From positions 56,237-120,236 of the forward strand of contig CAYPSS010000001.1 in NCBI GenBank assembly GCA_964413735.1: a stretch of DNA of 64,000 bases, in the 5' to 3' direction. Positions within the stretch are counted from its first letter, which is position 1. Every line of letters begins with the position of its first letter. The DNA is from an uncultured Gammaproteobacteria bacterium (GTDB lineage: Bacteria > Patescibacteriota > Patescibacteriia > UBA11705). This document shows positions 1 to 20,583 of the stretch, in pieces. The notes below the pieces were generated by a model that saw only the letters and a program-made list of their open reading frames with translations, was not told the origin of the DNA and searched no databases. The position numbers and the translations under genes were made by a program.

Positions 1-77
1 TCGGGATCAAACTTTTCAAATTTTAAGCTAAGTTCTTTGGCCGCATCACGTAAAACTTTGATGTGAGGCTTTTTCAT
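1..77 (-). CDS. N-terminal fragment of a gene running off the window edge; ATG overlaps the stop of the upstream ATP-grasp gene (ATGA), translation begins MKKPHIKVLRDAAKELSLKFEKFDP
   Basis: ATG at 77-75 on minus strand overlapping TGA at 76-74; same strand and operon as upstream ATP-grasp genes; product not identifiable from 25 residues. Confidence 0.3.
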   Translation of the reverse strand, partial: MKKPHIKVLRDAAKELSLKFEKFDP

Positions 78-1042
78 ATAATCTTTTTTCTGATTAATAA
101 ATCAACAATTTGCTTAGCCGGATTGCGCGATTTTCCATGATGCGGATAATGATGCATCATTAACCCGGGAATCGGATTTACTTCAATAAAAAACCCCTTG
201 GCCAACCGATGATCACGAGCCATAAAATCAAATCCGGCAATCGGCATTCGCAACAATTTAGCCGCTTTTATGGCCATGTCTTTTATTTTCGGATGAACCT
301 CATCAGTAATATCTATTGTTTCTCCACCGGTCGCCAAATTGGCAGTGCGTCTAACAAATATTTTTTGTCCTTTTTCCGGACGATCACGCAAGGTCAAGTT
401 TTGTCTTTGCAAAACATGACGTAACAAAGCATCAATTATTACCGGTTTTTTGTGTTTGACCTTACGAATATTCCATAAATCAATTAATTGCTTGATATTA
501 TGTTGCCCATCACCAATTACATAAGCGGGAATTCTTTTAATTGCATATATGTAACGATAATCAATCACCAAAATACGATGATCATCGCCGGGAACCGCTT
601 TTTCAATTAAAATCGCATTTTTATAAGCACTTTCCAATTTATTATGATTGGTGGCTGCCAAAGCCTTTTCCATTGCCGGGAGCAATTCTTCGCGATATTT
701 GATGGCAATTGTTATTCCTTTACCTTGATTGGCACTCAAAGGTTTAATTACCACTTTTTTATTCTTTTGCAAAAATTTCCAGGCTTGTTCTTCTGTTTTA
801 ATCAAACTAAAATTAGGCACGGGAAATCCATTTTTTTTCAAAAAACGATCGGTTAAAAATTTGTTCGCCGCAATTTTATATGATGGATCGCTGATTAATT
901 CCGTCAAAGACTGATAAATAAAAGTGTGCTTTCCTTTTCGGCGCAACAAAAACAATTTTCCGCCACTTCCCACCGGGAAAATCTTAATTCCCTTTTTTTT
1001 CGCTTCATCAATAATTAATTTTGAATATGGTGATATTTTCAT
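74..1042 (-). CDS. ATP-grasp ligase, cyanophycin-synthetase-like (CphA-type) ATP-grasp domain
   Basis: 322-aa ORF; ATP-grasp core motifs (IKPLSANQGKGI, ATGGETIDITDEVHP, FIEVNPIPGLMMHHYPHHGKSRNPAKQIV resembling the CphA/Ddl-C-like hhHxxPxxGxxRxVA signature); translationally coupled to neighbours. Confidence 0.65.
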   Translation of the reverse strand: MKISPYSKLIIDEAKKKGIKIFPVGSGGKLFLLRRKGKHTFIYQSLTELISDPSYKIAANKFLTDRFLKKNGFPVPNFSLIKTEEQAWKFLQKNKKVVIKPLSANQGKGITIAIKYREELLPAMEKALAATNHNKLESAYKNAILIEKAVPGDDHRILVIDYRYIYAIKRIPAYVIGDGQHNIKQLIDLWNIRKVKHKKPVIIDALLRHVLQRQNLTLRDRPEKGQKIFVRRTANLATGGETIDITDEVHPKIKDMAIKAAKLLRMPIAGFDFMARDHRLAKGFFIEVNPIPGLMMHHYPHHGKSRNPAKQIVDLLIRKKII

Positions 1043-1896
1043 ACTAAACTTTCCAAATATTGAATAATTTTCCCCGGAACATCTATTTTATTTTTTTGCA
1101 CAAATCTTTTAAATTGCGGTGACCGGTTTACTTCCAATACATATGGTTGTTCTTTTTCATCGAAAATAATATCCACGCCGGCAATATCCGCATTGGTCGC
1201 TTTAGCCGCCATTTCCGCGATTTTTTTCATTTTTGGCGTTAAATTTGACGCAAAAGCTCTTTGGGCCAAAGGAATTTGTTTACTTCTGGTCACCTTCAAA
1301 GTGTAACGCTTTAAAGCGCCAATGGCCAGACCATCAATAACCAAAACTCGATAATAATAATCACTATTTATAAACTTCTGAACAAAATATTTTTTAATCG
1401 GATTATTTCTTATAAATTCCTGAAATTTTTTTTCCGTGGAAATGATATGAATATTACGACCATGCATGCCATGAATATCCTTAATAATAATCGGATATTC
1501 GAATTTATACTTTGATTGACGCCACTCATCACAAGAAAAATAATAATAGGTATCAAGACAAGGCACGCCATGAAAACTAAGGGCCGAATACATGAATATT
1601 TTATCAAACGAATACACCTTTTTGTATAATTCCTTATCAACTACTGGGATATGATGACGATTCAAATGTTTGGCCAAAGTTTTTGCCTTGGCAAAATGCG
1701 GGTTGATTCCGCGGATTAAACAAATATCAAAATCAAGAACATTTTTAGCTTTATAATAAATATTAAATTTATTTTTTTCCAAAATAAATGATAAACAATT
1801 TATTGAGGCGCGAGTTGCCCGATGCCCGTATTTTTTTGCAGCTAAAATCAGAGAACGGTTTTCCCAGGAATTGGGACCAATGATCAAAATATTCAT
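1039..1896 (-). CDS. RimK-like ATP-grasp ligase (alpha-L-glutamate ligase family)
   Basis: 285-aa ORF; RimK-type ATP-grasp layout (IKDIHGMHGRNIHII, ADIAGVDIIFDEKEQPYVLEVNRSPQF); 4-bp overlap with upstream gene. Confidence 0.6.
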   Translation of the reverse strand: MNILIIGPNSWENRSLILAAKKYGHRATRASINCLSFILEKNKFNIYYKAKNVLDFDICLIRGINPHFAKAKTLAKHLNRHHIPVVDKELYKKVYSFDKIFMYSALSFHGVPCLDTYYYFSCDEWRQSKYKFEYPIIIKDIHGMHGRNIHIISTEKKFQEFIRNNPIKKYFVQKFINSDYYYRVLVIDGLAIGALKRYTLKVTRSKQIPLAQRAFASNLTPKMKKIAEMAAKATNADIAGVDIIFDEKEQPYVLEVNRSPQFKRFVQKNKIDVPGKIIQYLESLV

Positions 1897-1900
1897 TTTT

Positions 1901-3307
1901 TTATTTTAATTTTTTAGTAGGATCAACCAAAAATCTTTTCAAATCTCGTCGACCGATAATAATCGGATATTTCATTTCTTTGCGTCCAATCACCGTCATG
2001 GTCGAATTTATATCAACACCAGAGATTTCCAGCTTAATTGGCAATTCCATGCGATATGAAGCACCATGTGAACTGTAAATTTTCGCTACCCCGATTATAT
2101 CAGGGTGCTTTTCAAGTTCTTGCCAAACTTTTTTATCCGACAACTCGGCAATTTCTTCCGAACTCATTACATCTTTGATATTAAACGATTTATAATAATT
2201 AATAGCGCTATCATAACCAAGAGCAATCGCCAAATCTTCATCAATAGAAGAAATCCCGGCACCGGTATCCACCTTGGCCTCTACTTCAATTTGATTTTTA
2301 TTTTTCCCTATTACTTTTACCGGTTCAATAATACCGATTACCTGTTTACCGGATAACTCCTCGATTTCCTGTTCAATTTCTCCACCAAATAATTCTTTGG
2401 CCACCATTATTCCTTTTTTAATGGTTTTGATTTTCAAACCCTTTACTCTTAATAATCGATCTTTCAAAGTGGCTAAATTCGCTACCTGAATTTCCATCCC
2501 CGGTCGAGCATTTAATTCCAAAATAATCGGGCCCTTTTCTCGATCAAGCGCCACATCAACCCCCACATAATTTAATTTACAAACCATTTGGGCTTCAATG
2601 GAAATCTCTAAAATTTGACGCCAAAATGGGATTTGGATACCGCGCAATTGAAACTTTGTCCCGGGCAAATAATCAATCATTTTACCATCTTGAACCGCAT
2701 GAGTGGTTAATCCGGTTTCAATATCAATGCCCACTCCAATACCACCGGCATGCAAATTAGCTTTGCCATTAGAATCTTTGGTGGGCAACCGAAGCATGGC
2801 CATTACCGGAACCCGATTATAAACAATTACTCGAATATCAGGAACACCCTTATATGAATATAATTTAAATACCGGATGGATCTTAATTCGTTCTTCGAAA
2901 AAAGCTGTATCCGGAGTATTGGTAATAGAATAATCACCATCTAAAATATTACTAACACGAAGCATGACATCACGAATCTCTGCATCACGATCAAGTGGCA
3001 AAACCCAATGACCGTTTTTCTTTTTTCCAAAAGTCACCATAATTCCTTCACCGCCCAAACCGCGATTTGGTTTTAAAACAAAACTATTGGGTAAACTTCC
3101 CCAATCAAAAGCATCAAACTCCTTCCAATTTCTGATTTTGGAAATCAGCTTGGCAACCGGCAAACCGGATTGACGCAAAAGTCGTTTGGTTTTTAATTTA
3201 TTATCAACCAAATTTTTATATTTTTTCGGACCGCTGGGACGAATGAAATCCAAATTACGTGAATTCATTCCCAGCACCCCTTTACTTTTTTTCAGGAAGT
3301 TCAACAT
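1901..3307 (-). CDS. Fusion protein: N-terminal alpha-L-glutamate-ligase-related ATP-grasp domain plus C-terminal retropepsin-like aspartyl protease domain (putative ATP-dependent zinc protease, PF05618-like)
   Basis: 468 aa; N-terminus GMNSRNLDFIRP...VDNKLKTKRLLRQSGLPV typical of the rimK-related E-ligase family; ATP-grasp motifs (ILELNARPGMEI); C-terminal 140 aa contains the aspartyl protease signature VDTGAGISSI (D-T-G-A). Confidence 0.6.
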   Translation of the reverse strand: MLNFLKKSKGVLGMNSRNLDFIRPSGPKKYKNLVDNKLKTKRLLRQSGLPVAKLISKIRNWKEFDAFDWGSLPNSFVLKPNRGLGGEGIMVTFGKKKNGHWVLPLDRDAEIRDVMLRVSNILDGDYSITNTPDTAFFEERIKIHPVFKLYSYKGVPDIRVIVYNRVPVMAMLRLPTKDSNGKANLHAGGIGVGIDIETGLTTHAVQDGKMIDYLPGTKFQLRGIQIPFWRQILEISIEAQMVCKLNYVGVDVALDREKGPIILELNARPGMEIQVANLATLKDRLLRVKGLKIKTIKKGIMVAKELFGGEIEQEIEELSGKQVIGIIEPVKVIGKNKNQIEVEAKVDTGAGISSIDEDLAIALGYDSAINYYKSFNIKDVMSSEEIAELSDKKVWQELEKHPDIIGVAKIYSSHGASYRMELPIKLEISGVDINSTMTVIGRKEMKYPIIIGRRDLKRFLVDPTKKLK

Positions 3308-4805
3308 TTTGAATTACTTTGCGAAAACGGTACAGTTCGAGCAAGCGCAAACCAGTCCATTTCCCAAGAGCGTAATTAATTAAAAAAGTTAATAAAATAA
3401 TTTCCGGATAACCAATAATTAAAATCCGCAAACTTTCCCAAGTAGCCAAATAATAACTCACCAAGGCCAAAATCAAAGTTTCCGCCACCAATTTAAAAGC
3501 AGTTTTACTGCCTAGTTCTATCTGCGCTTCCAAAAACTTTTCCGTAATAATCACCATAATCAAAATCGGAAAAATGGAAATACTGATAATACCGGTTTTG
3601 TTAAACAATGCCCCAACAAAAAACATTCCCAACACCGAAAAACTGACAATACTTAAAACCAATGACATTCGAGGCATATACATTAAACGAATTTTTCGCG
3701 CTACAAGACGACCAACCGTACCAATAATCAAAACCATGGCAAACAAAGCCAACCCGTATTTAATACCGGTCGCTATAAAGGAAACCGCCACCAATGATGG
3801 CGCATACATGCCAAAAGCTTTGATCCCAATGATCTGTCGAGAAAAAGCAATGATCGTGGCAATAATTGGCAAAATCAAAATCAAATAAATGGTATTGATT
3901 GACACGCCATTATTAACCATATAATCAATAATGTAAGATAAAAAATTCCACAGTTTTAGAGTATGCAAAGGTCTTTGAGTATGGGCACCCAAAATTTGAT
4001 ATGATTGATTGTTTTCTTTCAATTGATAGGTAATGCTTTCAGAATCCAAACGAGGGATCACTTCTTCATACCCGCCGGCATCCACCACCATCATATTTTT
4101 CGGCAACAATAAATTATAAACATTTTGGGCCAATCTTGAGGTCACTTTCAAATTTTCGCCGGTTAAAACATATATCCCCTTTTGATTAAACCCCAAACTC
4201 TTAATATCAGCCCCCTTGGCTAATTCTTGGCTGGCCCCAATCAATGCATTTAAGCCATAACTCCCACTGGTCCAAATAACAATATTTCTAGCCTGCCTAA
4301 TATCTGACCGATTTTCCACAATCGCTTGAATTAATAATGACTCACTTAAATAATCGGTATCTTGTTTGGGAATAATGATCGGAACAAGCAAAATCCCCAC
4401 CGAACTGGATTTTTCTTGCAACTCTTCCAACAATTCGGTGGATAATGATTCATCGGTAATTAACATCACAATATCTTTTTCCACCTTTACAATAATTTCA
4501 TCTTCCGCCATCAAATTGCCGTTAATGGCCGACAAAGAAACACGATAAACCCCGGGGTTGGCAAAAGTATGAGTTACTTCCACCCCGTTAGCAATTGAGC
4601 CATCACCAAAATCCCAAGTAAAACTGGTGTTTTCAATCACTTGATCGGTATTGGCGGAAAATACCACCGGTCTTTCCACTAAGACATTTTTATCTTCACC
4701 GGCTTCAATAGAAAAAATATTATTAACGGTTTGGGCCTGAGTAATAGAAGCAAAAAATAAAAATATTAAACTTAAACAAAAAAAGTAAATGCTACGCTTT
4801 ACCAT
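3282..4805 (-). CDS. Secreted PKD-domain protein fused to a C-terminal 7-TM integral membrane domain (7TM/inactive-transglutaminase-like partner of RimK-type ligases)
   Basis: 507 aa; signal peptide, PKD motif (FTWDFGDGS...HTFANPGVYRVSLSA), central globular region, then about 7 hydrophobic helices; overlaps and is co-oriented with the ATP-grasp genes. Confidence 0.5.
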   Translation of the reverse strand: MVKRSIYFFCLSLIFLFFASITQAQTVNNIFSIEAGEDKNVLVERPVVFSANTDQVIENTSFTWDFGDGSIANGVEVTHTFANPGVYRVSLSAINGNLMAEDEIIVKVEKDIVMLITDESLSTELLEELQEKSSSVGILLVPIIIPKQDTDYLSESLLIQAIVENRSDIRQARNIVIWTSGSYGLNALIGASQELAKGADIKSLGFNQKGIYVLTGENLKVTSRLAQNVYNLLLPKNMMVVDAGGYEEVIPRLDSESITYQLKENNQSYQILGAHTQRPLHTLKLWNFLSYIIDYMVNNGVSINTIYLILILPIIATIIAFSRQIIGIKAFGMYAPSLVAVSFIATGIKYGLALFAMVLIIGTVGRLVARKIRLMYMPRMSLVLSIVSFSVLGMFFVGALFNKTGIISISIFPILIMVIITEKFLEAQIELGSKTAFKLVAETLILALVSYYLATWESLRILIIGYPEIILLTFLINYALGKWTGLRLLELYRFRKVIQNVELPEKK

Positions 4806-5298
4806 AATAATTTTTTAATTTATAAGAATTGGAGGCACAAATCGCCACCGCCAAAGCATCGGCCGCATCGTCCGGTTGCGGAATATTTCGTAATGACAAA
4901 AACACTTTGACCATTTGTTGAACTTGTTTTTTTTCCGCTTTACCATAACTGACAATCGCTTGTTTAACTTGTAATGGGGTAAATTCCACTATCGGAATCC
5001 CGGCCAAATGCGCGGTTAAAATAATCACGCCTCGCGCTTGTCCCACCTTAATGGCGGTCGTAGTATTTTTACAAAAGTAAAGATCTTCAATCGCCACCAA
5101 GTCAGGCTGATATTTTTTTATAATTGAAGTTAATTGTTCATAAAGATATTTCAACCGCTCGGGAAATTCAATTTTCCCGGAAGTTTCAACACAACCATAA
5201 TCAAGCATTTTGATTTGGCTACCTTGATTTTCGATCATCCCCCAACCGGTTCGGCCATATCCGGGATCAATACCTAAAATTTTAATTTCTTTTTTCAT
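4792..5298 (-). CDS. ruvC: Crossover junction endodeoxyribonuclease RuvC
   Basis: 168 aa; ILGIDPGYGRTGWG N-terminus, VAIEDLYF, C-terminal DAADALAVAICAS motif. Confidence 0.85.
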   Translation of the reverse strand: MKKEIKILGIDPGYGRTGWGMIENQGSQIKMLDYGCVETSGKIEFPERLKYLYEQLTSIIKKYQPDLVAIEDLYFCKNTTTAIKVGQARGVIILTAHLAGIPIVEFTPLQVKQAIVSYGKAEKKQVQQMVKVFLSLRNIPQPDDAADALAVAICASNSYKLKNYYGKA

Positions 5299-5307
5299 GA
5301 AACAAGA

Positions 5308-6021
5308 TTAAGATTGAGCATTGGTAAAATAATCGGACACATCATCATTTTCTTCCAAAGCCTCCAACATTTTATTTAACTGGCTTTGCGTGTTTTCATC
5401 CACTACCGTCTCGTCCTTGGCCACCCATTCCATTTCCGCATAAGAGATTGCCAATTTTTTATCTTCAATCAACTTCTTTAATTTCGGGAAATTATCAAAG
5501 GTGGTGATTACCGTCATTCCCTTGTCATCAACCTCAACATCCTCAGCCCCATTATCAATTAATTCCAATTGCAACTCTTCACTTTCACTAACTTGATCAA
5601 TTCGAATGATCCCTTTATGTTCAAACATCCATTTTACTGAATTAGGACCGCCCATCGCGCCATTATATTTGGAAAAAATGTGCTTTAAATCACTGGAAGT
5701 GCGATTACGATTATCCGTATTGGTTAAAACCAATATCGCCACTCCACCCGGTCCAAAACCCTCATAAATCACCTCTTCAATTTGTCCACCATCCGCCGTT
5801 CCGGCGCCACGCGCGATCGCTCGATCAATATTATCCTTGGGCATATTGGCCGCCCGCGCCTTATCAACGGCCAGACGCAATTTGAAATTCGTTTCCAAAT
5901 CCGCTCCACCCTTGGCCGCCACGATGATATTTTTAATAATTTTAGTAAATTGTCCTGAGCGTTTTTGATCAGCTACGGCCTTTTTACCGGCAATCTTACT
6001 CCATTTGTTATGTCCTGACAT
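5308..6021 (-). CDS. yebC: YebC/PmpR family DNA-binding transcriptional regulator
   Basis: 237 aa; MSGHNKWSKI start, GGADLETNFKLR, YEGFGPGGVAI conserved blocks. Confidence 0.85.
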   Translation of the reverse strand: MSGHNKWSKIAGKKAVADQKRSGQFTKIIKNIIVAAKGGADLETNFKLRLAVDKARAANMPKDNIDRAIARGAGTADGGQIEEVIYEGFGPGGVAILVLTNTDNRNRTSSDLKHIFSKYNGAMGGPNSVKWMFEHKGIIRIDQVSESEELQLELIDNGAEDVEVDDKGMTVITTFDNFPKLKKLIEDKKLAISYAEMEWVAKDETVVDENTQSQLNKMLEALEENDDVSDYFTNAQS

Positions 6022-6233
6022 AAGAGTTGTTTATTAAACCTAAAAAATGAAAAGTTTTGACCTTTTCCATGATGTAATCATAACAAATTTTATAGATTTT
6101 TTCAACTATACCTGATCTCGTTGGACCTCTACCCTGAATCACTCAAAACCGTCACTGAAATTTAAAATGTGCATAACACCATTGAAAAAAAATAATGAGT
6201 CTGATAAGGTTATATTAAGTTAAAAATTATTTT

Positions 6234-7250
6234 ATGTTTGATGAGCTGCGTCAACAATACGACCAATCAAATTTATACCGAGTAATAGAAAATTTACCCG
6301 GCCAACTCATCAGCGCCCTTAATTTTACCGAAATTAAATTTAATTCTGTTCCCCGCAGAATTTTTATTTTTGGCGTTGGCGGTTCCGCCTTACCAGCAAA
6401 TATTTTGAAAACCATTATTAATAATTCACAACAAAATTTCACCACCCCGATTCATATTATTCGTGATTATTCTTTCCCCAAAGACTTTAATAATGATGAT
6501 GGAGCGATATTTATTTCCTATTCCGGCAATACCGAGGAACCACTGGAAAATTTTGATCAAGCGTTAAAACTAAACCATAAAAATTTATTAGTCCTAACCA
6601 CCGGAGGGCGATTACAAAAAATTGCCGACGAAAATTCCGTGCCACTCACCATTATTCCCTCCGATGCCCTGCAACCGCGCATGGGATATGGCTATTTTGT
6701 CGGTGCCTTGATGAAAATTTTAATTAGTTCTCACTTATTGGAAGATCATTATTCGATTATTGAACAAACGGTCGCACAGTTAAATGCGGAGAAAGAAAAA
6801 ATTATCAATCAAGCGCAACAATTATCAAAAAACATTAAACAATCAACCCCCATTATTTATACAACCGACCGTTGGAAATATTTAGCCATGATTGTGAAAA
6901 TAAATTTCAATGAAAATGCCAAAATCCCCAGTTTTTGGAACTGTTTTCCCGAACTCAATCACAATGAGATGGTGGGATTTACCAATACAACTGGAAATTA
7001 TCAAATAATAATATTTAATGATCCTGAAGAGCACCCCCGTAATCAAAAAAGAATTAAAGTTTTCCAAAAATTCATGGAAACCAAATTCCCGATTGAAATA
7101 ATTAACTTCCCTACCGGTAATGCTCTATACAAAACTTTTCACATTTTATGGCTCGGACTGTGGACCTCCTACTTTACTGCTTTGCAAAACAAAATTGATC
7201 CCACCCCGGTTGACTTGGTAGAAGAATTCAAGAAGTTATTAAATGAGTAA
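6234..7250 (+). CDS. Bifunctional phosphoglucose/phosphomannose isomerase (SIS domain, archaeal-type PGI/PMI)
   Basis: 338 aa; SIS-domain Gly-rich motif IFIFGVGGSALPANIL, length and layout typical of bifunctional PGI/PMI. Confidence 0.6.
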   Translation: MFDELRQQYDQSNLYRVIENLPGQLISALNFTEIKFNSVPRRIFIFGVGGSALPANILKTIINNSQQNFTTPIHIIRDYSFPKDFNNDDGAIFISYSGNTEEPLENFDQALKLNHKNLLVLTTGGRLQKIADENSVPLTIIPSDALQPRMGYGYFVGALMKILISSHLLEDHYSIIEQTVAQLNAEKEKIINQAQQLSKNIKQSTPIIYTTDRWKYLAMIVKINFNENAKIPSFWNCFPELNHNEMVGFTNTTGNYQIIIFNDPEEHPRNQKRIKVFQKFMETKFPIEIINFPTGNALYKTFHILWLGLWTSYFTALQNKIDPTPVDLVEEFKKLLNE

Positions 7251-7276
7251 TTTGGGGGTAAAACCCCATTACATAG

Positions 7277-7312
7277 AACTTCTCGTCTCCATGCTTGGCG
7301 AGAAGTTTTTAA
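7277..7312 (+). terminator. Rho-independent terminator after PGI/PMI gene
   Basis: Hairpin aacttctcg...cgagaagtt followed by TTTTT. Confidence 0.55.
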
Positions 7313-7348
7313 ATTGGAGATTTAAGACAAATTTGCTATGATGAAATT

Positions 7349-8902
7349 ATGTTTATGACTTTTTGGCAAAAACTACAACATTTTAAATATCATAAAATCT
7401 TATTGGTGTTTTTGTTTTGTATTTTAATTTTTTCTTTATTTCAAGCACCGCATGGGATGGGCGACCCAGATGGCTTTTATCATGCCCGGCTATCGCAAAT
7501 GATGACTAACAACCTTACCTTCCAAGAATTCCCCTGGATGCAGTTTTCCACCCTAAATGAAAATTTCACTGATCATCATTTCTTGTACCACCTATTATTA
7601 ATGCCATGGACCATTGTTTTTGATCCTTTAATGGGCACAAAAATATTTACCGTTATTTTATCCTCATTATTCATTACTTGTTTTTATTGGTTTTTAACTC
7701 GCTATAATTTTCAATACAAACTACCATTATTATTTTTACTTTTTATTTTTACTTCGTTTTTCTTTCGTCTATCTTTAATCAAAGCCACCGCCTTATCCTT
7801 AATTATTTTGCTGTTTATAATTTATGCGATTTTTGAAAAAAAATATTCTCTGATTTTATTCCTGTCATTTATTTATGTTTGGAGTTACGGTGGATGGCTT
7901 TTGGGTTTGGTAGTTGGAGGAATTTACATTATTTCTGAAACAATTTATTTATTAATAAAAACAAAACCATCATGGAAATCCCTGATTAATAAAACATTCA
8001 ATTTTTCCAATAAAAAAATAATTTTCAATTTAGTCTTAGGCAACCTCATGGGGCTGATAATCAATCCCTACTTTCCTCAAAATATAAAATTTTACTGGCA
8101 ACAAATTTGGCAAATCGGTATTATCAACTATCAAAAAATAGTTGCCGTGGGAAATGAGTGGTTCTCCATTTCCTTATTAGACCTTGGGTCGCACTCGATT
8201 ATCACCACCGTTATAATTATCCTGACATTTACCTGGTGTATTATTAATTACAAAAAGATCAATCGCTTCACTATATTTTTCGCATTATTAACCATATTTT
8301 TCTTGCTTTTAACTTTGAAATCACGCCGTTATTTGGAATACTTTATTCCATTTTCCACTCTTTTTGTCGGATATTCATTTACCTTAAACAAACTCCAATT
8401 ACCAACTAATCGACAATCTATTATTGATTTTTTCAAAAGACCGTCCCATTTTATTATCAGTATAATAATTGTTATGATTTTATGTTTTCAATACGGTCAT
8501 AGCCTTTATAATGTAAAAAAAAACCTTAATCGTGACAAATACTTAAATTATCAGGGAGCCGCCCAATATTTGCAAAAACACACGCCTTATCATACCACGA
8601 TTTTTCATCCCGGGTGGGATGATTGGCCGGCTTTATTTTATTATAATCCCAACAATTACTATATTGGCGGGCTTGATCCCACCTTCACTTATTTATATAA
8701 TTCAAACCTTTATCAAAAATGGCAACAAGTGGTCCACCAACCGGCAAATAATGACTTTTATCAAATCATTAAAAATGACTTTCATGCTTCTTATGTTTTT
8801 GCGCCCAAACAATATAAACAATTTATAACAAATTTGAATAATAATTTTTATTTTAAACCGATTTATTCCGATGATCATGTGATTATTTATCAAGTCCTAT
8901 GA
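7349..8902 (+). CDS. Polytopic integral membrane protein, putative GT-C-fold glycosyltransferase-like
   Basis: 517 aa, more than 10 predicted TM helices; acidic DPDG motif in first extracytoplasmic loop; ATGA overlap with next gene. Confidence 0.45.
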   Translation: MFMTFWQKLQHFKYHKILLVFLFCILIFSLFQAPHGMGDPDGFYHARLSQMMTNNLTFQEFPWMQFSTLNENFTDHHFLYHLLLMPWTIVFDPLMGTKIFTVILSSLFITCFYWFLTRYNFQYKLPLLFLLFIFTSFFFRLSLIKATALSLIILLFIIYAIFEKKYSLILFLSFIYVWSYGGWLLGLVVGGIYIISETIYLLIKTKPSWKSLINKTFNFSNKKIIFNLVLGNLMGLIINPYFPQNIKFYWQQIWQIGIINYQKIVAVGNEWFSISLLDLGSHSIITTVIIILTFTWCIINYKKINRFTIFFALLTIFFLLLTLKSRRYLEYFIPFSTLFVGYSFTLNKLQLPTNRQSIIDFFKRPSHFIISIIIVMILCFQYGHSLYNVKKNLNRDKYLNYQGAAQYLQKHTPYHTTIFHPGWDDWPALFYYNPNNYYIGGLDPTFTYLYNSNLYQKWQQVVHQPANNDFYQIIKNDFHASYVFAPKQYKQFITNLNNNFYFKPIYSDDHVIIYQVL

Positions 8903-10530
8903 ACATCAAAACCATAATTCACAATTGGCGTAAACGTGAATGGCTCACCATGCTGGGGATTTCATTATTTTTGATTTTTTTGATAATTATCCCTTTAATT
9001 TACGGACAAATAATAAAAGAGCCAACCGAAACAATTAGCGGTATTCATGTTTTAGCTCCCGGAGATTATCCGATTTATTATTCTTATATCAACCAAATCA
9101 AAAATCATGGTTGGCTACTTTTCAATCAATTTACCACCGAAAACCAATCTACGGGTATCTTCAATATTGTTTGGTTATTAATTGGTAAATTCGCCAATCT
9201 TTTTAATTTAAACGCAATCTGGGCCTTGAAAATTTTTCAATTGCTCTGCATTCCCATTTTGGTTTTTTCATTATATTTATTCATTTCTATTTTTACCGCC
9301 AACATATTAAAACGTCGCTGGGCTTTGATTTTTTCTTGTTTGGGCAGTGGTTTGGGCGTATATTTTGAATCTTTGATTTATACGAACAATGATATTTATT
9401 TTCGCTCAGCTGACTTGTGGATGCCGGAGGCCACCATTTTCAACACCATTTCTCATGTGCCTCATTTTATTTTAGCCACGTCTTTGATTTTTTTGATTTT
9501 CACTTTTTCATTTTTAGCTCTAAATCAAAATAAATATTATTATACTGTTTGGGCCGGCATTTTGACTTTGCTTTTGTTCAATTTTCATCCTTATCATATT
9601 CCTTTAATATATTTAACATTTTCAGTTTATGGATTAACCAAACTTTTTGATAAAAAGCTTTTGTTCAAAGAATTAATAAAGCATTTATTTATAATAGGTC
9701 TTATTTCTCTGCCAAGTATTATTTATCATTTTTACACCCTCACTGATCCGGTGATTTTTGCCCGTAGCTTACAAAATATAACTCTTAGTTCCCCTTTATA
9801 CTTTTATATATTCGGTCTTGGTATTTACTTTTTACTGTGGAGCGGGGGCGTTTACTTGTTGTACAAAAAATGGCTACCTTCCAAATTTTATTTTCTCATT
9901 ATTTGGATTTTAATTGCTTATTTACTCGCCTATTTACCCGGTTGGCAATTCCAAAGACGCTCAATTCAAGGCGTTATTATTGCCGTAGTAATGCTAAGTA
10001 TAGAATACTTGTATTATCTGATTTTTATTAAACGATTATCGTTTTTTCAAAATCGTTTATTCAAACAACCATTTTTTCTTAGCTTAATAATTATTTTTAT
10101 TTTTGCTCCTTCGTCTTTTTTTCTGGAATTGCGAGAATTTTATAATTATAAACAAAAAGGTGAGTTTTTTTATTTAAACAAAGACAAAACCTATGGTTTT
10201 GAATTTTTACGCAAATTACCAAGAGGGAATGTTTTAAGCAGTCAAATTACCTCAGTTTTTATTCCCTCTCATACCGGGAAAAGTGTTTTTTTCGGTCATG
10301 CTCATGAAACTATTGATTCAAAAAGAAAAAACCAACAAAAACAAAAGTATTTCACCAACCAAATGACCGAATCGGAAGAATTAAACTTTTTAAAAAAATA
10401 TAATTTACATTATTTTTGGTGGGATGATATTTTGCAAATCAAATATCCCAACTTTGATCCTCAGACAAAAACGTATTTTCAATCCCTGGCAGTTTTTGAC
10501 AATCAAGAAATTTTTATTATTGAATATTGA
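8899..10530 (+). CDS. Polytopic integral membrane protein (putative envelope glycosyltransferase/polymerase-like)
   Basis: 543 aa, many TM helices, translationally coupled to upstream membrane protein. Confidence 0.45.
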   Translation: MNIKTIIHNWRKREWLTMLGISLFLIFLIIIPLIYGQIIKEPTETISGIHVLAPGDYPIYYSYINQIKNHGWLLFNQFTTENQSTGIFNIVWLLIGKFANLFNLNAIWALKIFQLLCIPILVFSLYLFISIFTANILKRRWALIFSCLGSGLGVYFESLIYTNNDIYFRSADLWMPEATIFNTISHVPHFILATSLIFLIFTFSFLALNQNKYYYTVWAGILTLLLFNFHPYHIPLIYLTFSVYGLTKLFDKKLLFKELIKHLFIIGLISLPSIIYHFYTLTDPVIFARSLQNITLSSPLYFYIFGLGIYFLLWSGGVYLLYKKWLPSKFYFLIIWILIAYLLAYLPGWQFQRRSIQGVIIAVVMLSIEYLYYLIFIKRLSFFQNRLFKQPFFLSLIIIFIFAPSSFFLELREFYNYKQKGEFFYLNKDKTYGFEFLRKLPRGNVLSSQITSVFIPSHTGKSVFFGHAHETIDSKRKNQQKQKYFTNQMTESEELNFLKKYNLHYFWWDDILQIKYPNFDPQTKTYFQSLAVFDNQEIFIIEY

Positions 10531-12199
10531 TTTTTTCCGATCCGCCAATTACTTTATAATCAATTATATCTTCACTAAAACCCACTTTATTTAAAACTGT
10601 TTTACCCATAATTTCAATTGGCTGTACTATAAAATGTTTTGTTTCCGGCAAAAAAGACAAGGACCTTTCCTGTCTTCCTTTGGCGATATGAATTATCTTT
10701 TCACTCAATACTTGGCCACTGCCATTTTTTTGTTGGATCAAATAATTACCCGGCTGAGAGAAATTAACTGTCCGGAAATGGCTGAGATCTAAATCAAAAT
10801 TTTCCACCCCTAACCCAATAAACGAGAAATCATCAATAAATGCCCGCGGTTTTTTCCGTACTAATAAATCATAGATGTAATTCTCCGCCTTACCAGAAAC
10901 ATTCTTGTTTTTCAACTGAAAAGTAAGAATATCCGCTTCGTTAAAAATCACATTATCAATTTGCTGCGGCACCATATATGGTTTATCCGAAAACTGCCGA
11001 AAACCTTGATCTACATATGATAAAGCGTATAAATTTTTATTACCCGTTAAGTAGGGCAAAAAGTCGTACCCGGCGACAACATTGGCTTCAGACGGAAGTT
11101 TATTTATTATTTCACTAAAAAAATATTTTTCTATCTCCGGTCGCTTAATTTTGTTAATTTCCATAATCGGACCAAGCGTAATAAACGAATAAATGGTAGC
11201 GCTAATTAAAAAAATTGGTAAAAACTTTTGATAAGCAATTAAAACTTTAATTTTATTGAGCAAAATCTCGTGCACCACATAAATCAAGACGATAAATCCA
11301 ACGACTAAAAATAATGTCGCATAATGTCCCCGCAATACGATGGTGCCAAGCCCGCCAATTAAGACATATTGCGCATAAATCGGGATTAAAGGGAATAAAT
11401 ATTTTAACCGCAAAAATGGTAAAAAACCAAATGGCAAAAATATCCCGAACAACAAGTCCAGTTGATCCAAAGTAAAAATTTTTGACCAAAAATCTAGGTA
11501 ATAAATACCATATTTATATGCCCCCTGATTGAAAAATGATATTAAAACCAAGGATAAAATAAACCACAACAAACCACTCACAAAAGCAAAAATACTATAA
11601 CGATTAATTTTCCGTTCTTTTAATAACAAACCTAAACCAAAAAACATTATGATTAGGGACACATCCTCACGAACCATCAAGGAAGCCAAAGAAAAAATAA
11701 CAAAGGGAACCCATGCTTTCTTTAAGTAAAAATAAAACGAAAAAAACAAAAAAAACAAAGCCATGGGCAAAACATGAAATTCAAACAAAGCCATTTGCCA
11801 AACAAACGGATTTAACAAATATAAAACAACAAACAACCAGGCATATTTTTTATCTGTCAAAACTTGACGGGCGATCAAAAATAACGGCCAGCCGGCTAAA
11901 CAAATAAACGCTGCTTGAATAAACAATAAAAAAATCGGCGAAGAAAAACCCCAGTATCCCAAAGTCAATGGCAAAAGCCATAATTCCAAATGATCCCCAA
12001 AATATACCCCGCCCTGAATCGTGGAATAAAACCAATTACCATTAATGGTATTTTGTAAAACATTACTATAAATAGCCAAATCCAAACAATTATAACGAAA
12101 ATTGTTAAATTTATAAATTATCAAGCCAAACATTAAACCAAAAGCTACCGCAATTATAGTGAACAGTAATAAATTTTGTTTTCGATTTGATAAATTCAT
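10517..12199 (-). CDS. Polytopic membrane protein, DUF2079-like
   Basis: 560 aa; N-terminal TM then LDLAIYSNVLQNT...GGVYFGDHLE block resembling the DUF2079 membrane family; multiple TM helices. Confidence 0.45.
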   Translation of the reverse strand: MNLSNRKQNLLLFTIIAVAFGLMFGLIIYKFNNFRYNCLDLAIYSNVLQNTINGNWFYSTIQGGVYFGDHLELWLLPLTLGYWGFSSPIFLLFIQAAFICLAGWPLFLIARQVLTDKKYAWLFVVLYLLNPFVWQMALFEFHVLPMALFFLFFSFYFYLKKAWVPFVIFSLASLMVREDVSLIIMFFGLGLLLKERKINRYSIFAFVSGLLWFILSLVLISFFNQGAYKYGIYYLDFWSKIFTLDQLDLLFGIFLPFGFLPFLRLKYLFPLIPIYAQYVLIGGLGTIVLRGHYATLFLVVGFIVLIYVVHEILLNKIKVLIAYQKFLPIFLISATIYSFITLGPIMEINKIKRPEIEKYFFSEIINKLPSEANVVAGYDFLPYLTGNKNLYALSYVDQGFRQFSDKPYMVPQQIDNVIFNEADILTFQLKNKNVSGKAENYIYDLLVRKKPRAFIDDFSFIGLGVENFDLDLSHFRTVNFSQPGNYLIQQKNGSGQVLSEKIIHIAKGRQERSLSFLPETKHFIVQPIEIMGKTVLNKVGFSEDIIDYKVIGGSEKINIQ

Positions 12200-12262: not shown

Positions 12263-12658
12263 TTATCGTCCGGCAGTTCCGGTTGCTTCTGTTAATCTTG
12301 AAACCACAAAGTTGGTAATCCCATAAGCGGCCAAAATAATCACCAAACCAATAATGGCGTTGGTTAAATATTTTTTACCTTGTTCCACCCCATCTTTTTC
12401 ACCACCGGCAGTCATATACTTAAACCCGCCAATAATAATCATAATCACCATCACCACGCCCAAAAAACTTAAAATAATATTAATGATTCGACCAATAATT
12501 ACCGGCAAATCATCTGATGGAGTTTCCCCTGGACCATAAATTCCTTCACCGGTATTTACTAAAGTCCCTTGAATGTCCACTTGGGCCAAAACGCTTGGCG
12601 CCACAAGCAAGAGACAAACCAGCAACCCAAGGAAATACCCGAAAAGTTTTGTCTTCAT
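12263..12658 (-). CDS. Small secreted two-TM pilin-like protein (TrbC/VirB2-type T4SS pilin-like family), paralog 1
   Basis: 131 aa; Sec signal peptide, short variable region, conserved C-terminal block IIGRIINIILSFLGVVMVIMIIIGGFKYMTAGGEKD...AIIGLVIILAAYGITNFVVSRL shared by 8 tandem paralogs. Confidence 0.5.
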   Translation of the reverse strand: MKTKLFGYFLGLLVCLLLVAPSVLAQVDIQGTLVNTGEGIYGPGETPSDDLPVIIGRIINIILSFLGVVMVIMIIIGGFKYMTAGGEKDGVEQGKKYLTNAIIGLVIILAAYGITNFVVSRLTEATGTAGR

Positions 12659-12691
12659 AATTTTATTATGTTAATTATTTATATTTAATTA

Positions 12692-13087
12692 TTAATCAAT
12701 TAAATAAGCTGACTCCATTAATCGTCTTACCACAAATGAGGTAATAGAATAAGCCGTCACACAAATTACCAGGCCGATAATCGCATTGGTAATGGTTTTC
12801 TTGGCTTCCTCTAATTTGGTTTTATCCCCTTCGGCCGTCATATATTTCACCCCGGCCAAAATAATGAGCACCATCATCACTACCGCTAAAACCGCCAAAA
12901 CAATGGAAATAATTCGACCAATCACGGCCGGCAAATACGGCGCGTCCGCATGTCCGTAACTTTCATTACCAAAAGTACCCATGGCATTACCCGCTTGTTC
13001 CTGCAAAGAACTGGCCGCCAAAACTTCCCCGCCTAGAAAAAGCGCGAAAATTAATAGCAAAGTAATTAATATTTTTTTATTAAACAT
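12692..13087 (-). CDS. Pilin-like two-TM protein, paralog 2
   Basis: 131 aa; same architecture (VIGRIISIVLAVLAVVMMVLIILAGVKYMTAEGDKTKLEEAKK...IIGLVICVTAYSITSFVVRRL). Confidence 0.5.
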   Translation of the reverse strand: MFNKKILITLLLIFALFLGGEVLAASSLQEQAGNAMGTFGNESYGHADAPYLPAVIGRIISIVLAVLAVVMMVLIILAGVKYMTAEGDKTKLEEAKKTITNAIIGLVICVTAYSITSFVVRRLMESAYLID

Positions 13088-13303
13088 ATGATTAAAAAAG
13101 TAATAAGCAAGAAAGTGCTAAGCGAGATAAGTAAGACAAGTGAGACAAGTAAAACGAGTGAAACGAGTATTAAAAGGGGTTAGGGATAAGGGATTAGGGG
13201 GGCTAGAAAATGAGGGAATAAAAATAAAAACCATATTCTCACTCTGAACTTGTTTCAGAGTCTGTGCTATGATCTGGACAAATAAAAAGATCTATTACAG
13301 TGT
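13088..13303. repeat. Modular intergenic repeat block (gtaag-rich block, G-tract block, 29-bp palindromic element)
   Basis: gtaagacaagtg/aagcaagaaagt motifs at 13100-13170 also found at 21962-22035 and 24150-24215; G4-type motif ggggttagggataagggattaggggggg at 13176-13202; ttctcactctgaacttgtttcagagtctg at 13237-13265 identical to 24428-24456. Confidence 0.7.
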
Positions 13304-13699
13304 CTATGAGGTCGGGGAAATTAAAGCATTAATCAAAATTTGATTCATTACATAACTGGAAATTGAATACGCGAGCAAAATTATAATAAGGCCAATAATA
13401 CCGTTTTTGATCCAATCCTTAGCCTTTTCCACTTCATCCTTTTTTCCACCGGCCGTTAAATATTTATAACCACCCATTAAAATAATCACCGTTAAAACAA
13501 CACCGGAAACCACCAATACACCATTCACGATCCGTCCAATCACCACCAATAAATTTGACTCTGTTCCCTCGCCATAAACCGCTTCACCGCCCTGTTGTAG
13601 ATTTTGATTAGCGGTTTCAAAAACATTTTCCGCTTGAACCGACGTAAAAGCGCCAAACAATATTATAGTTAAGATCAAAAAAACTAATACTTTATTCAT
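13304..13699 (-). CDS. Pilin-like two-TM protein, paralog 3
   Basis: 131 aa; conserved block VIGRIVNGVLVVSGVVLTVIILMGGYKYLTAGGKKDEVEKAK. Confidence 0.5.
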   Translation of the reverse strand: MNKVLVFLILTIILFGAFTSVQAENVFETANQNLQQGGEAVYGEGTESNLLVVIGRIVNGVLVVSGVVLTVIILMGGYKYLTAGGKKDEVEKAKDWIKNGIIGLIIILLAYSISSYVMNQILINALISPTS

Positions 13700-13709
13700 A
13701 TTGCTTTAA

Positions 13710-14090: not shown

Positions 14091-14095
14091 AAATT

Positions 14096-14524: not shown

Positions 14525-14562
14525 CGGAAGCAGCGGATATCAATCCGCTACTTTATAAAAAA

Positions 14563-14937: not shown

Positions 14938-15011
14938 TTTTTTTTAGTTATTTATTAAAATTTGTTTATATATATAGCGACCTTTGGTTGTTTATATTAT
15001 AGCAAAATTCA

Positions 15012-16544: not shown

Positions 16545-16547
16545 ATA

Positions 16548-19371: not shown

Positions 19372-20583
19372 TTAACCGTTTTTCAATGCATATTGCCAAA
19401 TCTTTTCCGCAACATTTATGGGTGCTCCCTGCGTTGGGAAATGATGCATATCAATATAAGGTAAAGTGTTGTTTTCCAGAAAAATAAATGATTGGTCTTG
19501 ATAATGTTTTTTTTCATCTTCACAAATAAAGTCTAGGCCACAAACAACGGCCGACAAAGATTGTGATACCTTTTCACAAAGATTTTTGGTTTCCGGATGT
19601 AATGATTCCGTCACATTAACAATTTCCGCCCCCGCCCCAAGCGTGATTTTTTGTCCTAAAACAATTTTTTGGCCCATCGATAAAACATCATCCAGCCTTA
19701 ATCCGAGAGAATTTAAATAAATTTCCAAATCATCATTAACTTCAATTTGATGTAAAGTGGCATCACGTCGCTGTTTTGGCAAACGCCAAGGATGTTTATT
19801 ATAATTTGCAATTAAACTTTTAATAGTGTTTTCACCATCACCGTAAATAGTGGCCGGCATTCGCTTGGCACAAGCCACCATTTGACCATCAATCACCACT
19901 GCGCGATAAACATGACCAATTGCGAAACGCTCGACAATCACCTTGGCGCTGATTTGTTTGGCGATTCTCAAAGCCTGATCAAAATCTTCCCAACTTTTAA
20001 TCTGAAAAAAAGCATGGCGACTGAGTGATGAATCATTGGGCTTTACCACCAAAGGAAAACCGATTTTCCGGCCAAAAGTTTTGGCTTTTTTTATCGAAAA
20101 AAATGATTGCCCGGGAGCAATCGGCCAATTATTTTTTTCCAAGACTTTTCGGAAATATTCTTTGGTATCCAGATTTTTGCTTTGGGTGACAATATCAAAC
20201 AAAGGTAATTCCTGGAAATATCTTGTCTTACCTTGATTATGCCAAGAAAAAAATGATAAGTATGATTTATTTTTATTTTTCAATTGATAAGCTCTGATAT
20301 CCAATTGTAATTTTTTCGCTTCATCCCAAATAACCAAAGTTCGATTATAAAACTGCCTTCGATCAATTTGCGAGGTGACTTCCACCAAATCAAATAATCT
20401 CAAAATAAAAACCAAAAAACGAATAAACAAAATGTCAATTGATTCAATGATTCTTTTTGGAAAAAAATTAGTGAACCTTTCCGCCAATGGATCAATAATC
20501 AAAGTTTCCAAATAAGAAACCATCTTATCATGCCAATGATTTTCCTCTAACGGATAGCAATGGGGACACTTTTTATTTTTCAT
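19372..20583 (-). CDS. ATP-grasp ligase, CphA-like C-terminal ATP-grasp with about 190-aa N-terminal extension
   Basis: 403 aa; C-terminal half parallels the 74..1042 protein (MPATIYGDGENTIKSL, GAEIVNVTESLHPET, LENNTLPYIDMHHFPTQGAPINVAEKI). Confidence 0.55.
   Translation of the reverse strand: MKNKKCPHCYPLEENHWHDKMVSYLETLIIDPLAERFTNFFPKRIIESIDILFIRFLVFILRLFDLVEVTSQIDRRQFYNRTLVIWDEAKKLQLDIRAYQLKNKNKSYLSFFSWHNQGKTRYFQELPLFDIVTQSKNLDTKEYFRKVLEKNNWPIAPGQSFFSIKKAKTFGRKIGFPLVVKPNDSSLSRHAFFQIKSWEDFDQALRIAKQISAKVIVERFAIGHVYRAVVIDGQMVACAKRMPATIYGDGENTIKSLIANYNKHPWRLPKQRRDATLHQIEVNDDLEIYLNSLGLRLDDVLSMGQKIVLGQKITLGAGAEIVNVTESLHPETKNLCEKVSQSLSAVVCGLDFICEDEKKHYQDQSFIFLENNTLPYIDMHHFPTQGAPINVAEKIWQYALKNG

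Follow-up and report, generated by a model that had tools for sequence, protein, structure and literature searches.

The DNA analyzed here, referred to as the window, is a stretch of 64,000 nucleotides (nt) from contig CAYPSS010000001.1 (assembly GCA_964413735.1, positions 56,237 to 120,236), deposited under the name of an uncultured Gammaproteobacteria bacterium and placed by GTDB within the Patescibacteriota, whose members are ultra-small. At its left end the window carries an operon coding for ATP-grasp ligases, a retropepsin-like protease and a seven-helix (7TM) membrane protein, and it is the relationship of this operon to the rloABC (Rlo) system of Proteobacteria that we address. Protein domains were identified by scanning the open reading frames (ORFs) of the window with Pfam and NCBIfam profiles. 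According to the ORF listing for positions 1-8000, six genes follow one another on the minus strand almost without intergenic space. The co-directional string begins with yebC (5308..6021; TACO1/YebC family, PF20772 and PF01709), upstream of which lies a divergent intergenic region of 213 nt; the position of yebC at the head of the string is also kept in related loci. After a 9-nt gap comes ruvC (4792..5298; PF02075, 2.7e-54), which overlaps by 14 nt the gene for an RloB-like membrane protein of 507 amino acids (aa) (3282..4805; PF14402 and PKD). The latter overlaps by 26 nt the gene for a 468-aa fusion of an RloC-like ATP-grasp ligase with a retropepsin (1901..3307; TIGR02291, PF14397 and PF05618). 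A gap of 4 nt separates the fusion gene from that of a 285-aa ATP-grasp ligase of the RimK/LysX superfamily (1039..1896; PF08443 and PF18030), and a 4-nt overlap links this RimK-like gene to the one for CphA-like 1 (74..1042; TIGR02068), a 322-aa stand-alone ligase resembling the G domain of cyanophycin synthetase. The stop codon of CphA-like 1 is in turn overlapped (ATGA) by the ATG, at position 77, of CphA-like 2, of which only the 5' end (1..77, minus strand) lies in the window before the gene runs off it.

The off-window part of the operon was read from two contigs assembled from Logan runs (L003 and L004), which are 99-100% identical to the window. The first 25 residues of CphA-like 2 (window 77..3) coincide with the N-terminus of a 307-aa ligase on L003 (L003:13192-14115), and this ligase is followed by PBP1A, a class A penicillin-binding protein of 949 aa (L003:14132-16981; TIGR02074, 542.6 bits against a cutoff of 508.75). 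The full gene order on the near-identical contigs is thus yebC, ruvC, 7TM, fusion, RimK-like, CphA-like 1, CphA-like 2 and PBP1A. Candidatus Falkowbacteria RIFOXYD2_FULL_35_9 has the same order, and its fusion protein is 75% identical to that of the window. The G+C content of the region is even (33-40%). Simple promoter and terminator scans returned no more sites than in shuffled sequence and thereby neither back nor contradict a single transcript. A preliminary description of the window had listed four of the minus-strand ORFs, those of the membrane protein, the fusion, the RimK-like ligase and CphA-like 1, together with a further gene starting at 77. All of them are present where it placed them, the last being the second CphA-like ligase, and the domains assigned to the four (CphA type, RimK type, glutamate-ligase-like plus retropepsin, and PKD/7TM) are borne out by hidden Markov model (HMM), profile and fold evidence. 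The same description spoke of three ligase types. Three ATP-grasp families are indeed represented, and the similarity between them is merely marginal in pairwise comparison, but the operon contains four ligases, not three.

Two of these genes have counterparts in an experimentally studied operon. Lormand et al. 2025 (mBio) gave the name rloABC to a proteobacterial operon of Pseudomonas aeruginosa and other Gammaproteobacteria (PMC12239564). RloA1-3 are retropepsins that are secreted, form dimers and have a basic substrate channel, in which K46, R114 and R137 bind the substrate and the R114A and R137A replacements abolish function. In vitro, RloA cleaves runs of at least eight Glu, as does the cytoplasmic RimB. 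A triple rloA1-3 mutant dies in salt-free medium and displays osmotic fragility along with defects in shape, biofilm formation and beta-lactam resistance; these defects are suppressed by deleting either rloB, coding for an inactive transglutaminase joined to a 7TM domain, or rloC, coding for an ATP-grasp ligase (PMC12239564). The Rlo product and substrate in vivo have not been established, although the authors suspect a link to peptidoglycan (PMC12239564). The substrates and products of such systems had been called unknown in the preliminary description, which holds for the in vivo product, but not for the activity of RloA on poly-Glu or for the place of rloB and rloC, genetically upstream of rloA. 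As many as 96% of RloB matches are found in Proteobacteria (PMC12239564).

The fusion protein of the window consists of an ATP-grasp domain (residues 7-290; 2438..3289, minus strand), an inter-domain linker with an LFGGE-E-E-E..G motif (residues 296-324; 2336..2422) and a retropepsin domain bearing DTGA and IIGRRDL motifs (residues 325-466; 1910..2335). The N-terminal domain is matched by PF14397 over residues 7-290 (2.5e-71, 240.6 bits) and by TIGR02291 ('alpha-L-glutamate ligase-like'; 5.5e-84, 281.9 bits against a cutoff of 314.2) over profile positions 8-291 of 317. The last approximately 26 positions of TIGR02291, which remain unmatched, are where the linker and the retropepsin domain follow. 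Among our surveyed loci, one (L083) is a textbook rloABC operon (RloA 3.5e-37; RloB 2.3e-139; RloC 453 bits with TIGR02291, above the cutoff), and the ligase domain of the fusion is 45% identical to its RloC. Conservation was analyzed in an alignment of 38 fusion homologues (A1) and in another of 28 diverse C-terminal domains (A3). The Mg/ATP residues D251, E264 and N266, aligned with D248, E260 and N262 of RimK, are invariant in A1. Residues 1-13 are also conserved among homologues, making ATG at 3307 the likely start rather than the position 3268 chosen by the gene caller. The AlphaFold2 (AF2) model of the fusion has a mean pLDDT of 81.8, with low values at linker residues 311-315. When this model was compared with the PDB using Foldseek, the top matches, to its N-terminal domain, were ArgX, LysX and RimK, with CphA also present. 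ArgX, LysX and RimK each extend the C-terminal Glu of a protein.

The retropepsin half took more sensitive comparisons to place. PF05618 matches residues 336-466 with 27.7 bits (cutoff 27), and the NCBIfam model of RloA3 matches with 5.9e-7; models named RloA1 and RloB were also returned by the window scan, and the RimB model NF052261 gave nothing for the fusion at E <= 0.01. A single-sequence phmmer search of the 468-aa protein against PDB found RimK only and missed the retropepsin; the diverse A3 profile was needed to reach retropepsin structures. With this profile, the crystal structures 9g59 (1.7e-12) and 9g58 (8.9e-12), both of them RloA entries (PMC12239564), were matched with DTGA aligned on DTGA, and so were a Legionella homologue (2pma, 1.7e-8), Rickettsia ApRick (3e-4) and Ddi1 (4.5e-4). 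Structural comparison behaved similarly. The Foldseek search of the whole model against PDB was swamped by ATP-grasp matches, and it was the set of viral structures (BFVD) that revealed the retropepsin, the matches including a phage 'acid protease' (8e-8, TMt 0.74), caulimovirus and badnavirus proteases, and foamy-virus and HIV-1 proteases (~1e-4). The expectation that the DTGA segment folds as an aspartyl-protease domain was borne out by the RloA profile and viral-protease matches, and at the level of the predicted model the retropepsin fold of the C-terminal domain is confirmed.

As judged from its motifs, the retropepsin, which is of the RimB/RloA-like kind, is catalytically intact. The catalytic DTGA (residues 347-350; codons at 2258-2269, minus strand) is present in all sequences of both alignments (38/38 in A1, 28/28 in A3), D347, T348, G349 and A350 being each invariant in A1, as are G452, D455 and L456 of the C-terminal IIGRRDL motif typical of retropepsins. 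Since there is one DTGA per chain, the predicted activity requires dimerization. HMM alignment and spacing relate K46, R114 and R137 of RloA, three of its four symmetric poly-Glu-binding residues, to K345, R419 and R442 of the fusion. The two arginines are spaced 23 residues apart in RloA and in the fusion alike; neither R419 nor R442 varies in A1 or A3, and K345 is conserved in at least 90% of the diverse A3 sequences. The fusion lacks a signal peptide and is free of cysteine between residues 310 and 468. Disulfide-forming cysteines mark the periplasmic RloA and are absent from the cytosolic RimB (PMC12239564). Because both the signal peptide and, as in RimB, the cysteines are missing, the protease domain is predicted to be cytoplasmic.

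Two further features of the fusion vary between lineages. The linker motif LFGGE-x-E-x-E-x-E..G is invariant in the Falkowbacteria-, Moranbacteria- and Dojkabacteria-type fusions and is not kept in those of the Shapirobacteria type; this acidic segment could serve as a hinge, act as a pseudo-substrate or be where the protein processes itself. In the lineage of the window, the retropepsin domain also has an extra helical insert of approximately 35-40 aa in the flap region, between the DTGA..LG and SSHG..R segments, which is missing from the shorter Saccharibacteria and Shapirobacteria versions.

The 507-aa product of the gene preceding the fusion had been described as secreted. It is instead an integral membrane protein with an external domain. 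PF14402 (7TM_transglut) matches residues 303-497 (2.5e-29, 103 bits, cutoff 25), PKD (PF18911/PF00801) matches residues 33-97, and the RloB model NF052267 (1.1e-21) is matched at profile positions 312-507 only, that is, in its 7TM part. In the AF2 model (pLDDT 86.5), an N-terminal signal/anchor helix is followed by a beta-alpha-beta domain (residues 111-272), a helical bundle (303-482) and a final helix (488-506). Taken together, these data define an extracytoplasmic PKD domain (residues 33-109; 4479..4709, minus strand), an alpha/beta domain with a flavodoxin-like three-layer fold according to AF2, here called MID (residues 111-272; 3990..4475), a seven-helix membrane domain delineated by PF14402, hydropathy and AF2 helices (residues 303-482; 3360..3899), and a helix following the seventh transmembrane (TM) helix (residues 481-506, GKWTGLRLLELYRFRKVIQNVELPEK; 3288..3365). 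The assignment to 7TM_transglut proteins was thus right for the PF14402 part, but the inactive-transglutaminase ectodomain of RloB is absent, PKD and the flavodoxin-like domain being in its place. Given the 7TM topology of PF14402, an ectodomain on the outside places the C-terminus, and with it the post-TM7 helix, in the cytoplasm.

It is this helix, with the motif G(K/R)(W/F/Y)TGLRLxE(Y/L)xRF(R/K), that turned out to be the most conserved feature of the protein. Among 46 homologues, three of them proteobacterial RloB, the juxtamembrane pattern G481-x3-G485-x-R487-x2-E490-x2-R493-F494 is kept in 45-46 of 46. P313, G327, G351, an acidic residue at 422 and P467 are likewise conserved from Patescibacteria to proteobacterial RloB. 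The MID domain is specific to the lineage. A phmmer search of 1.84 billion representative sequences gave 68 matches, of which 67 have the same architecture, with MID at about residues 115-310 of proteins of about 300-550 aa; the exception is a repetitive protein of 3263 aa.

Downstream of the fusion, the accessory ligases belong to the other two families. The 322-aa CphA-like 1 matches the cyanophycin synthetase model TIGR02068 (3.7e-72), though only at profile positions 158-473 of 862, and in PDB it aligns with the G domain of CphA1 (7lgn, 5.5e-39); judged by TIGR02068 coverage, the N and M domains of cyanophycin synthetase are absent. CphA-like 2 is 35% identical to it. A third ligase of this kind, 403 aa long, is encoded apart from the operon (19372..20583, minus strand), beside genes for a GalU-like nucleotidyltransferase, a solute-binding protein and pilins. 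The preliminary description had noted it as a separate CphA-type ATP-grasp, and it is real (TIGR02068 partial match, 1.6e-60), with 27% identity to CphA-like 1 and 2. The three CphA-G-like ligases score 243.6, 233 and 205 bits with TIGR02068 against a cutoff of 850; with scores of about 240 bits and without N and M domains, the CphA-like ligases cannot make cyanophycin as such. The 285-aa RimK-like protein is matched by PF08443 (2.5e-22) and PF18030 (Rimk_N), and by TIGR00768 over its full length, albeit with 114.3 bits for a cutoff of 143.4. It aligns end to end with Pseudomonas RimK (7qyr, 5e-11) and has the EVN Mg motif. The LysX and MptN models match it almost equally well, and there is a partial match to PF03133 (tubulin tyrosine ligase, TTL).

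How widespread this arrangement is was assessed in a survey in which one genome per species was scanned and the best 80 loci among the matches listed were compared. Relatives of the fusion protein number in the thousands. The top 120 clusters are all 450-503 aa long, most with both PF14397 and PF05618, and the named ones come almost exclusively from Falkowbacteria, Kuenenbacteria, Moranbacteria or the 'Patescibacteria group'. The labels of the best 80 loci are Falkowbacteria, Moranbacteria, Paceibacteria, Kerfeldbacteria, Dojkabacteria/WS6, Saccharibacteria, Shapirobacteria and Levyibacteria; also included are four proteobacterial or Desulfovibrio loci, in which the ligase is unfused. Gene-neighbourhood comparison, as proposed in the preliminary description, revealed that, in each of the 77 loci where the upstream sequence was long enough, the ligase is immediately preceded by a PF14402-type 7TM gene. 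The two genes abut or overlap everywhere except L050, where a 114-aa ORF lies between them. In about 73 of the 80 loci, the retropepsin segment follows the ligase in the same ORF.

The surroundings of this pair are less uniform. In most lineages the 7TM gene codes for about 215-330 aa, with little or no ectodomain, and the form of about 505-555 aa with PKD and MID is found in Falkowbacteria, Kerfeldbacteria and some Saccharibacteria-labelled metagenome-assembled genomes (MAGs), with protein matches adding Kuenenbacteria, Jacksonbacteria, Andersenbacteria and Peregrinibacteria. A same-strand ruvC lies no more than 2.5 kb upstream of the fusion in 36 of the 66 loci having at least 2.5 kb of upstream sequence; a same-strand PBP1A gene lies downstream in 31 loci altogether, and among the 42 whose downstream sequence extends for 9 kb or more, it does so in 24. 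The fusion is followed by one to four extra ligases, whose number and type vary by lineage, and every ORF tested directly 3' of it proved to be a further ATP-grasp or a peptidase. An apparent absence of accessory ligases from 23 loci in tblastn searches was a divergence artefact, as Pfam detected an ATP-grasp directly after the fusion in all six cases tested. Several loci of the Moranbacteria type have genes for a GT4 glycosyltransferase and YdjC between the ligases and PBP1A. In loci of the Microgenomatia type, the genes for the 7TM protein, the fusion and the RimK-like ligase are retained without a PBP1A nearby.

A second kind of peptidase, a metallocarboxypeptidase of the PF08014 (MATCAP) family, is associated with ten loci. 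It is fused in four of them, yielding triple fusions of about 800 aa with MATCAP at the C-terminus (L051:3474-5876, L053:9989-12391, L062:9977-12424 and L063:9992-12346), in some Saccharibacteria- and Dojkabacteria-labelled genomes, and nearby in six (for example, L049:4800-5918 and L017:13520-14875), one nearby copy being located upstream of the 7TM gene. Of the four triple fusions, two have a degenerate retropepsin motif (DTS in L062 and ETG in L063), which suggests that one peptidase can replace the other. The regular expression D[TS]G[AS] had flagged four loci as motif-less, but in the alignment two of them keep DTG, leaving L062 and L063 as the only degenerate ones. No MATCAP gene is present within the window.

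The combination of ligases with a ligase-protease fusion had been considered unusual. This is so in comparison with Proteobacteria, but within Patescibacteria the fusion and the multi-ligase layout are the norm. Patescibacteria-type fusions with yebC-ruvC synteny also occur in MAGs titled 'uncultured Bdellovibrionales' or 'uncultured Gammaproteobacteria' (L010, L013, L021-L023, L042, L044, L052 and others), and one fusion cluster (P0034) is named Candidatus Bipolaricaulota. These names look like unreliable labels rather than occurrences outside Patescibacteria. Our literature searches returned no description of the Patescibacteria (candidate phyla radiation) form of the operon, and the database names of the fusion and 7TM proteins are generic. 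The families of the operon do agree with the association of RimK-like amidoligases, 7TM proteins and PF05618 to which the preliminary description had linked it. The computational prediction of this amidoligase/7TM-transglutaminase/PF05618 neighbourhood, which is said to stand behind PF14397, PF14402 and PF05618, was reportedly made by Iyer, Abhiman, Burroughs and Aravind in 2009, a study cited in PMC12239564 and PMC12096838. Patescibacteria genomes became available later than that.

Comparison of sequences and structural models identifies the locus as a variant of the Rlo module in which the protease has been fused to the ligase, the RloB ectodomain has been replaced and three ligases have been appended. 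As to its function, we consider it more likely than not that the locus is the Patescibacteria form of the Rlo system and that it makes an acidic peptide at the membrane and trims it. The ligases would use ATP to build an acidic, Glu/Asp-rich, alpha-linked peptide in the cytoplasm, which could be a free oligomer or polymer or could extend a carrier or target at its C-terminus as a tail. The RloC-like ligase would be held at the membrane by the 7TM protein, for which the conserved post-TM7 helix is the obvious candidate docking site. The fused retropepsin, acting as a homodimer, would cut the same product and so set chain length or recycle the product, as RimB does for RimK. The 7TM protein would either pass the product to the cell surface or couple its synthesis to an external cue through the PKD/alpha-beta ectodomain, and the physiological target is probably cell-envelope homeostasis. 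Proteins that have become fused usually work on one and the same molecule. Given the fusion itself, the RimB precedent and the retained acidic-substrate residues, the protease most likely trims the acidic peptide of its own ligase. Likewise, with ArgX, LysX and RimK as relatives of the ligase and with the recurrent presence of MATCAP, a C-terminal tail is a serious option alongside a free poly-amino acid. The periplasmic location of RloA suggests that the product is exported in Proteobacteria. The link to the envelope is drawn by analogy with the Pseudomonas phenotypes and from the gene neighbourhood (PBP1A, GT4 and YdjC).

Several points weigh against this interpretation. The Patescibacteria members, the four ligases included, are known from sequence only, and the TIGR02291 and TIGR00768 scores are under the curated cutoffs. 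The protease is predicted to be cytoplasmic here and is periplasmic in Pseudomonas, so that the export step suggested by Pseudomonas genetics need not apply, and the 7TM protein may be an exporter or a sensor. The variable number and type of accessory ligases across lineages argues against one fixed product. The adjacency of PBP1A may be inherited synteny without functional meaning, as it surely is for yebC-ruvC. The C-terminus of the 7TM protein was also considered as a conserved acidic acceptor and rejected, because the extreme C-termini are variable; judging by these non-conserved ends, the 7TM protein is itself unlikely to be the tagged substrate.

The first alternative to the Rlo-type reading is that the operon assembles cell-wall peptides, the ligases extending precursors of peptidoglycan, or some other polymer of the wall, by amino acids, the 7TM protein handling a lipid-linked intermediate, PBP1A polymerizing it and the retropepsin trimming the added peptide. 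In some Gram-positives, ATP-grasp D-aspartate ligases make such additions to the stem peptide or cross-bridge. The 31 related loci with a same-strand PBP1A downstream, the interleaved GT4 glycosyltransferase and YdjC genes and a weak similarity of the ligases to Ddl and to an archaeal pseudomurein ATP-grasp all fit such a role, as do the shape, beta-lactam and osmotic phenotypes of Pseudomonas rlo mutants, in which the authors suspect peptidoglycan (PMC12239564). However, no ligase reaches the cutoffs of Ddl or Mur-associated models (the best Ddl scores are 38-42 bits versus 243-246), the core ligase has as its conserved partner an endopeptidase of the poly-Glu type that has kept its acidic-substrate residues, and Microgenomatia-type loci have the 7TM, fusion and RimK-like genes in the absence of a nearby PBP1A. 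We therefore regard cell-wall peptide assembly as rather unlikely.

A bolder idea, built by analogy with the tubulin code, is that of a bacterial writer/eraser system for C-terminal tails. Ligases of differing specificity would write a mixed acidic tail on an envelope or division protein docked at the 7TM protein, the retropepsin (in other lineages also MATCAP) would erase it, and wall synthesis by PBP1A would be tuned as a result. Such a scheme is speculative, and we would put it among the improbable ones. If it were true, proteobacterial RloBC would act alike and the missing class of Rlo substrates would be identified.

Alternatively, the product might stay in the cytoplasm as a storage compound or osmolyte, be it a cyanophycin-like polymer, poly-alpha-Glu/Asp or a peptide resembling N-acetylglutaminylglutamine amide (NAGGN), with the protease releasing monomers and the 7TM protein acting only as a sensor or regulator. 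Among named proteins, the accessory ligases are most closely related to cyanophycin synthetase, N-acetylglutaminylglutamine (osmolyte) synthetase and GshAB; the Rlo phenotype is osmotic and glutamate is an osmolyte (PMC12239564); and the protease is predicted to reside in the cytoplasm here. Still, the CphA-like proteins are without the N and M domains needed for cyanophycin, a strictly conserved and translationally coupled 7TM partner with a docking-like helix suggests more than regulation, and the periplasmic RloA implies that in Proteobacteria the product leaves the cytoplasm. These considerations make a storage role unlikely.

Modification of ribosomal protein S6 in the manner of RimK/RimB, with the RimK-like ligase glutamylating S6, the fused retropepsin removing the tail and the other genes being unrelated neighbours, is very unlikely. 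It draws on the end-to-end alignment of the 285-aa protein with Pseudomonas RimK (5e-11) and on a protease that is predicted to be cytoplasmic and is cysteine-free like RimB, which binds and regulates RimK. However, it is the RloC-type and not the RimK-type ligase that carries the protease, the 114 bits of the RimK-like protein fall short of the family cutoff of 143, NF052261 has no match at E <= 0.01, and the partner present throughout is a 7TM protein, a component missing from the rim operon. The S6 gene (rpsF) was not found in the window or the fetched loci with an approximate query sequence. Finally, a graspetide-type cluster for a peptide made by the ribosome and modified afterwards (RiPP) or a chance string of unrelated genes is hardly conceivable: graspetide ATP-grasp clusters have been published for candidate phyla radiation bacteria (with other ATP-grasp families) and the genome is densely packed, but the operon has no small or precursor ORF, all its junctions being overlaps or gaps of at most 9 nt, its ligases are of the RimK, RloC and CphA families rather than the microviridin type, and the 7TM-fusion pair in 77 of 77 loci across many lineages excludes chance.

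The rest of the window contains several other features of note. On the plus strand, a 517-aa ORF that appears strongly hydrophobic by eye and has no Pfam match (7349-8902) is followed by a 543-aa ORF with no precomputed Pfam family on the near-identical contig (8899-10530); next, on the minus strand, is a 560-aa ORF annotated on the near-identical contig as DUF2079 (10517-12199). Positions 12263-16913 (minus strand) are occupied by a tandem array of small paralogous genes (121-142 aa) together with a gene for a 510-aa protein. Two scanned members of the array have a PF18895 type IV secretion pilin domain, the 510-aa protein also having Big_2; 131-aa copies are annotated as PF18895 on both L003 and L004, and an array of PF18895 genes resembling this one is present on a Falkowbacteria contig (L001). 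A further surface-polymer locus (25221-27931, minus strand) codes for an O-antigen-ligase-like (Wzy_C) protein beside a polysaccharide-biosynthesis flippase-like protein, and at 47808-52409 (minus strand) there is a very long ORF, of 1533 aa, that starts with TTG.

In Pseudomonas, the Rlo system is important for tolerating osmotic stress, forming biofilms, keeping cell shape and resisting beta-lactams (PMC12239564), and the RloB survey of the mBio study, with its 96% Proteobacteria, does not cover Patescibacteria. The fusions and domain swaps found there are natural experiments that bear on what Rlo makes and cuts. The covalent joining of ligase and protease argues that the substrate of the protease is the product of the ligase, and a MATCAP-type carboxypeptidase that is repeatedly found fused or close by suggests C-terminal peptide tails. 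The 7TM core and its cytoplasmic helix, kept while the ectodomain is swapped or lost, show which part of RloB is essential, and the repeated neighbourhood of PBP1A, glycosyltransferase and YdjC genes lends independent support to the suspected cell-envelope link. That the module and up to four extra ligases survive extreme genome reduction in many Patescibacteria lineages suggests that they are important to the biology of these bacteria.

Among known systems, one parallel is the eukaryotic tubulin tail cycle of TTL/TTLL ATP-grasp ligases and MATCAP-type carboxypeptidases. Related loci pair an RloC-like ligase with a PF08014 MATCAP, and the writer/eraser logic for C-terminal amino-acid tails is alike; the resemblance is one of logic only, since the window has neither a MATCAP gene nor an identified tubulin-like substrate. 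The cyanophycin synthetase CphA1 is a parallel at the level of individual proteins. The 322-, 307- and 403-aa ligases align with its G domain, which extends the Asp backbone, but have neither the N-terminal anchoring domain nor the Mur-ligase-like M domain. In the RimK-RimB system, RimB binds and regulates RimK and cuts its poly-Glu product, according to the studies cited through PMC12239564 (Little 2016; Grenga 2020; Little 2025). As there, an ATP-grasp ligase is here paired with a retropepsin, both predicted to be cytoplasmic, their interaction is mirrored by a covalent fusion, and a RimK-like ligase is also part of the operon. In contrast to RimK-RimB, the fused ligase is of the RloC and not the RimK type, the 7TM partner is obligatory and there is no EAL-domain RimA.

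The closest system is Rlo. Its three components, the TIGR02291/PF14397 ATP-grasp, the PF14402 seven-helix domain and the PF05618 DTG retropepsin, are all present in the window operon, the gene for the membrane protein directly precedes that of the ligase, and both systems have in common the poly-Glu-binding equivalents of K46, R114 and R137 as well as the cytoplasmic motif after TM7. The differences are also clear. The protease is fused to the C-terminus of a cytoplasmic ligase, whereas Pseudomonas RloA is a separate, signal-peptide-bearing, disulfide-stapled periplasmic protein. The ectodomain of the membrane protein is PKD plus flavodoxin-like alpha/beta here, absent in most Patescibacteria, and an inactive transglutaminase in RloB. 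Three extra ATP-grasp ligases are added, the operon is set between yebC-ruvC and PBP1A, and the matches to the curated models of RloB and RloA are partial, with scores that fall far short of the cutoffs. This lineage-wide variant, for which no published description was found, is nevertheless a system of a known kind, namely Rlo, related to RimK/RimB, and not a new class.

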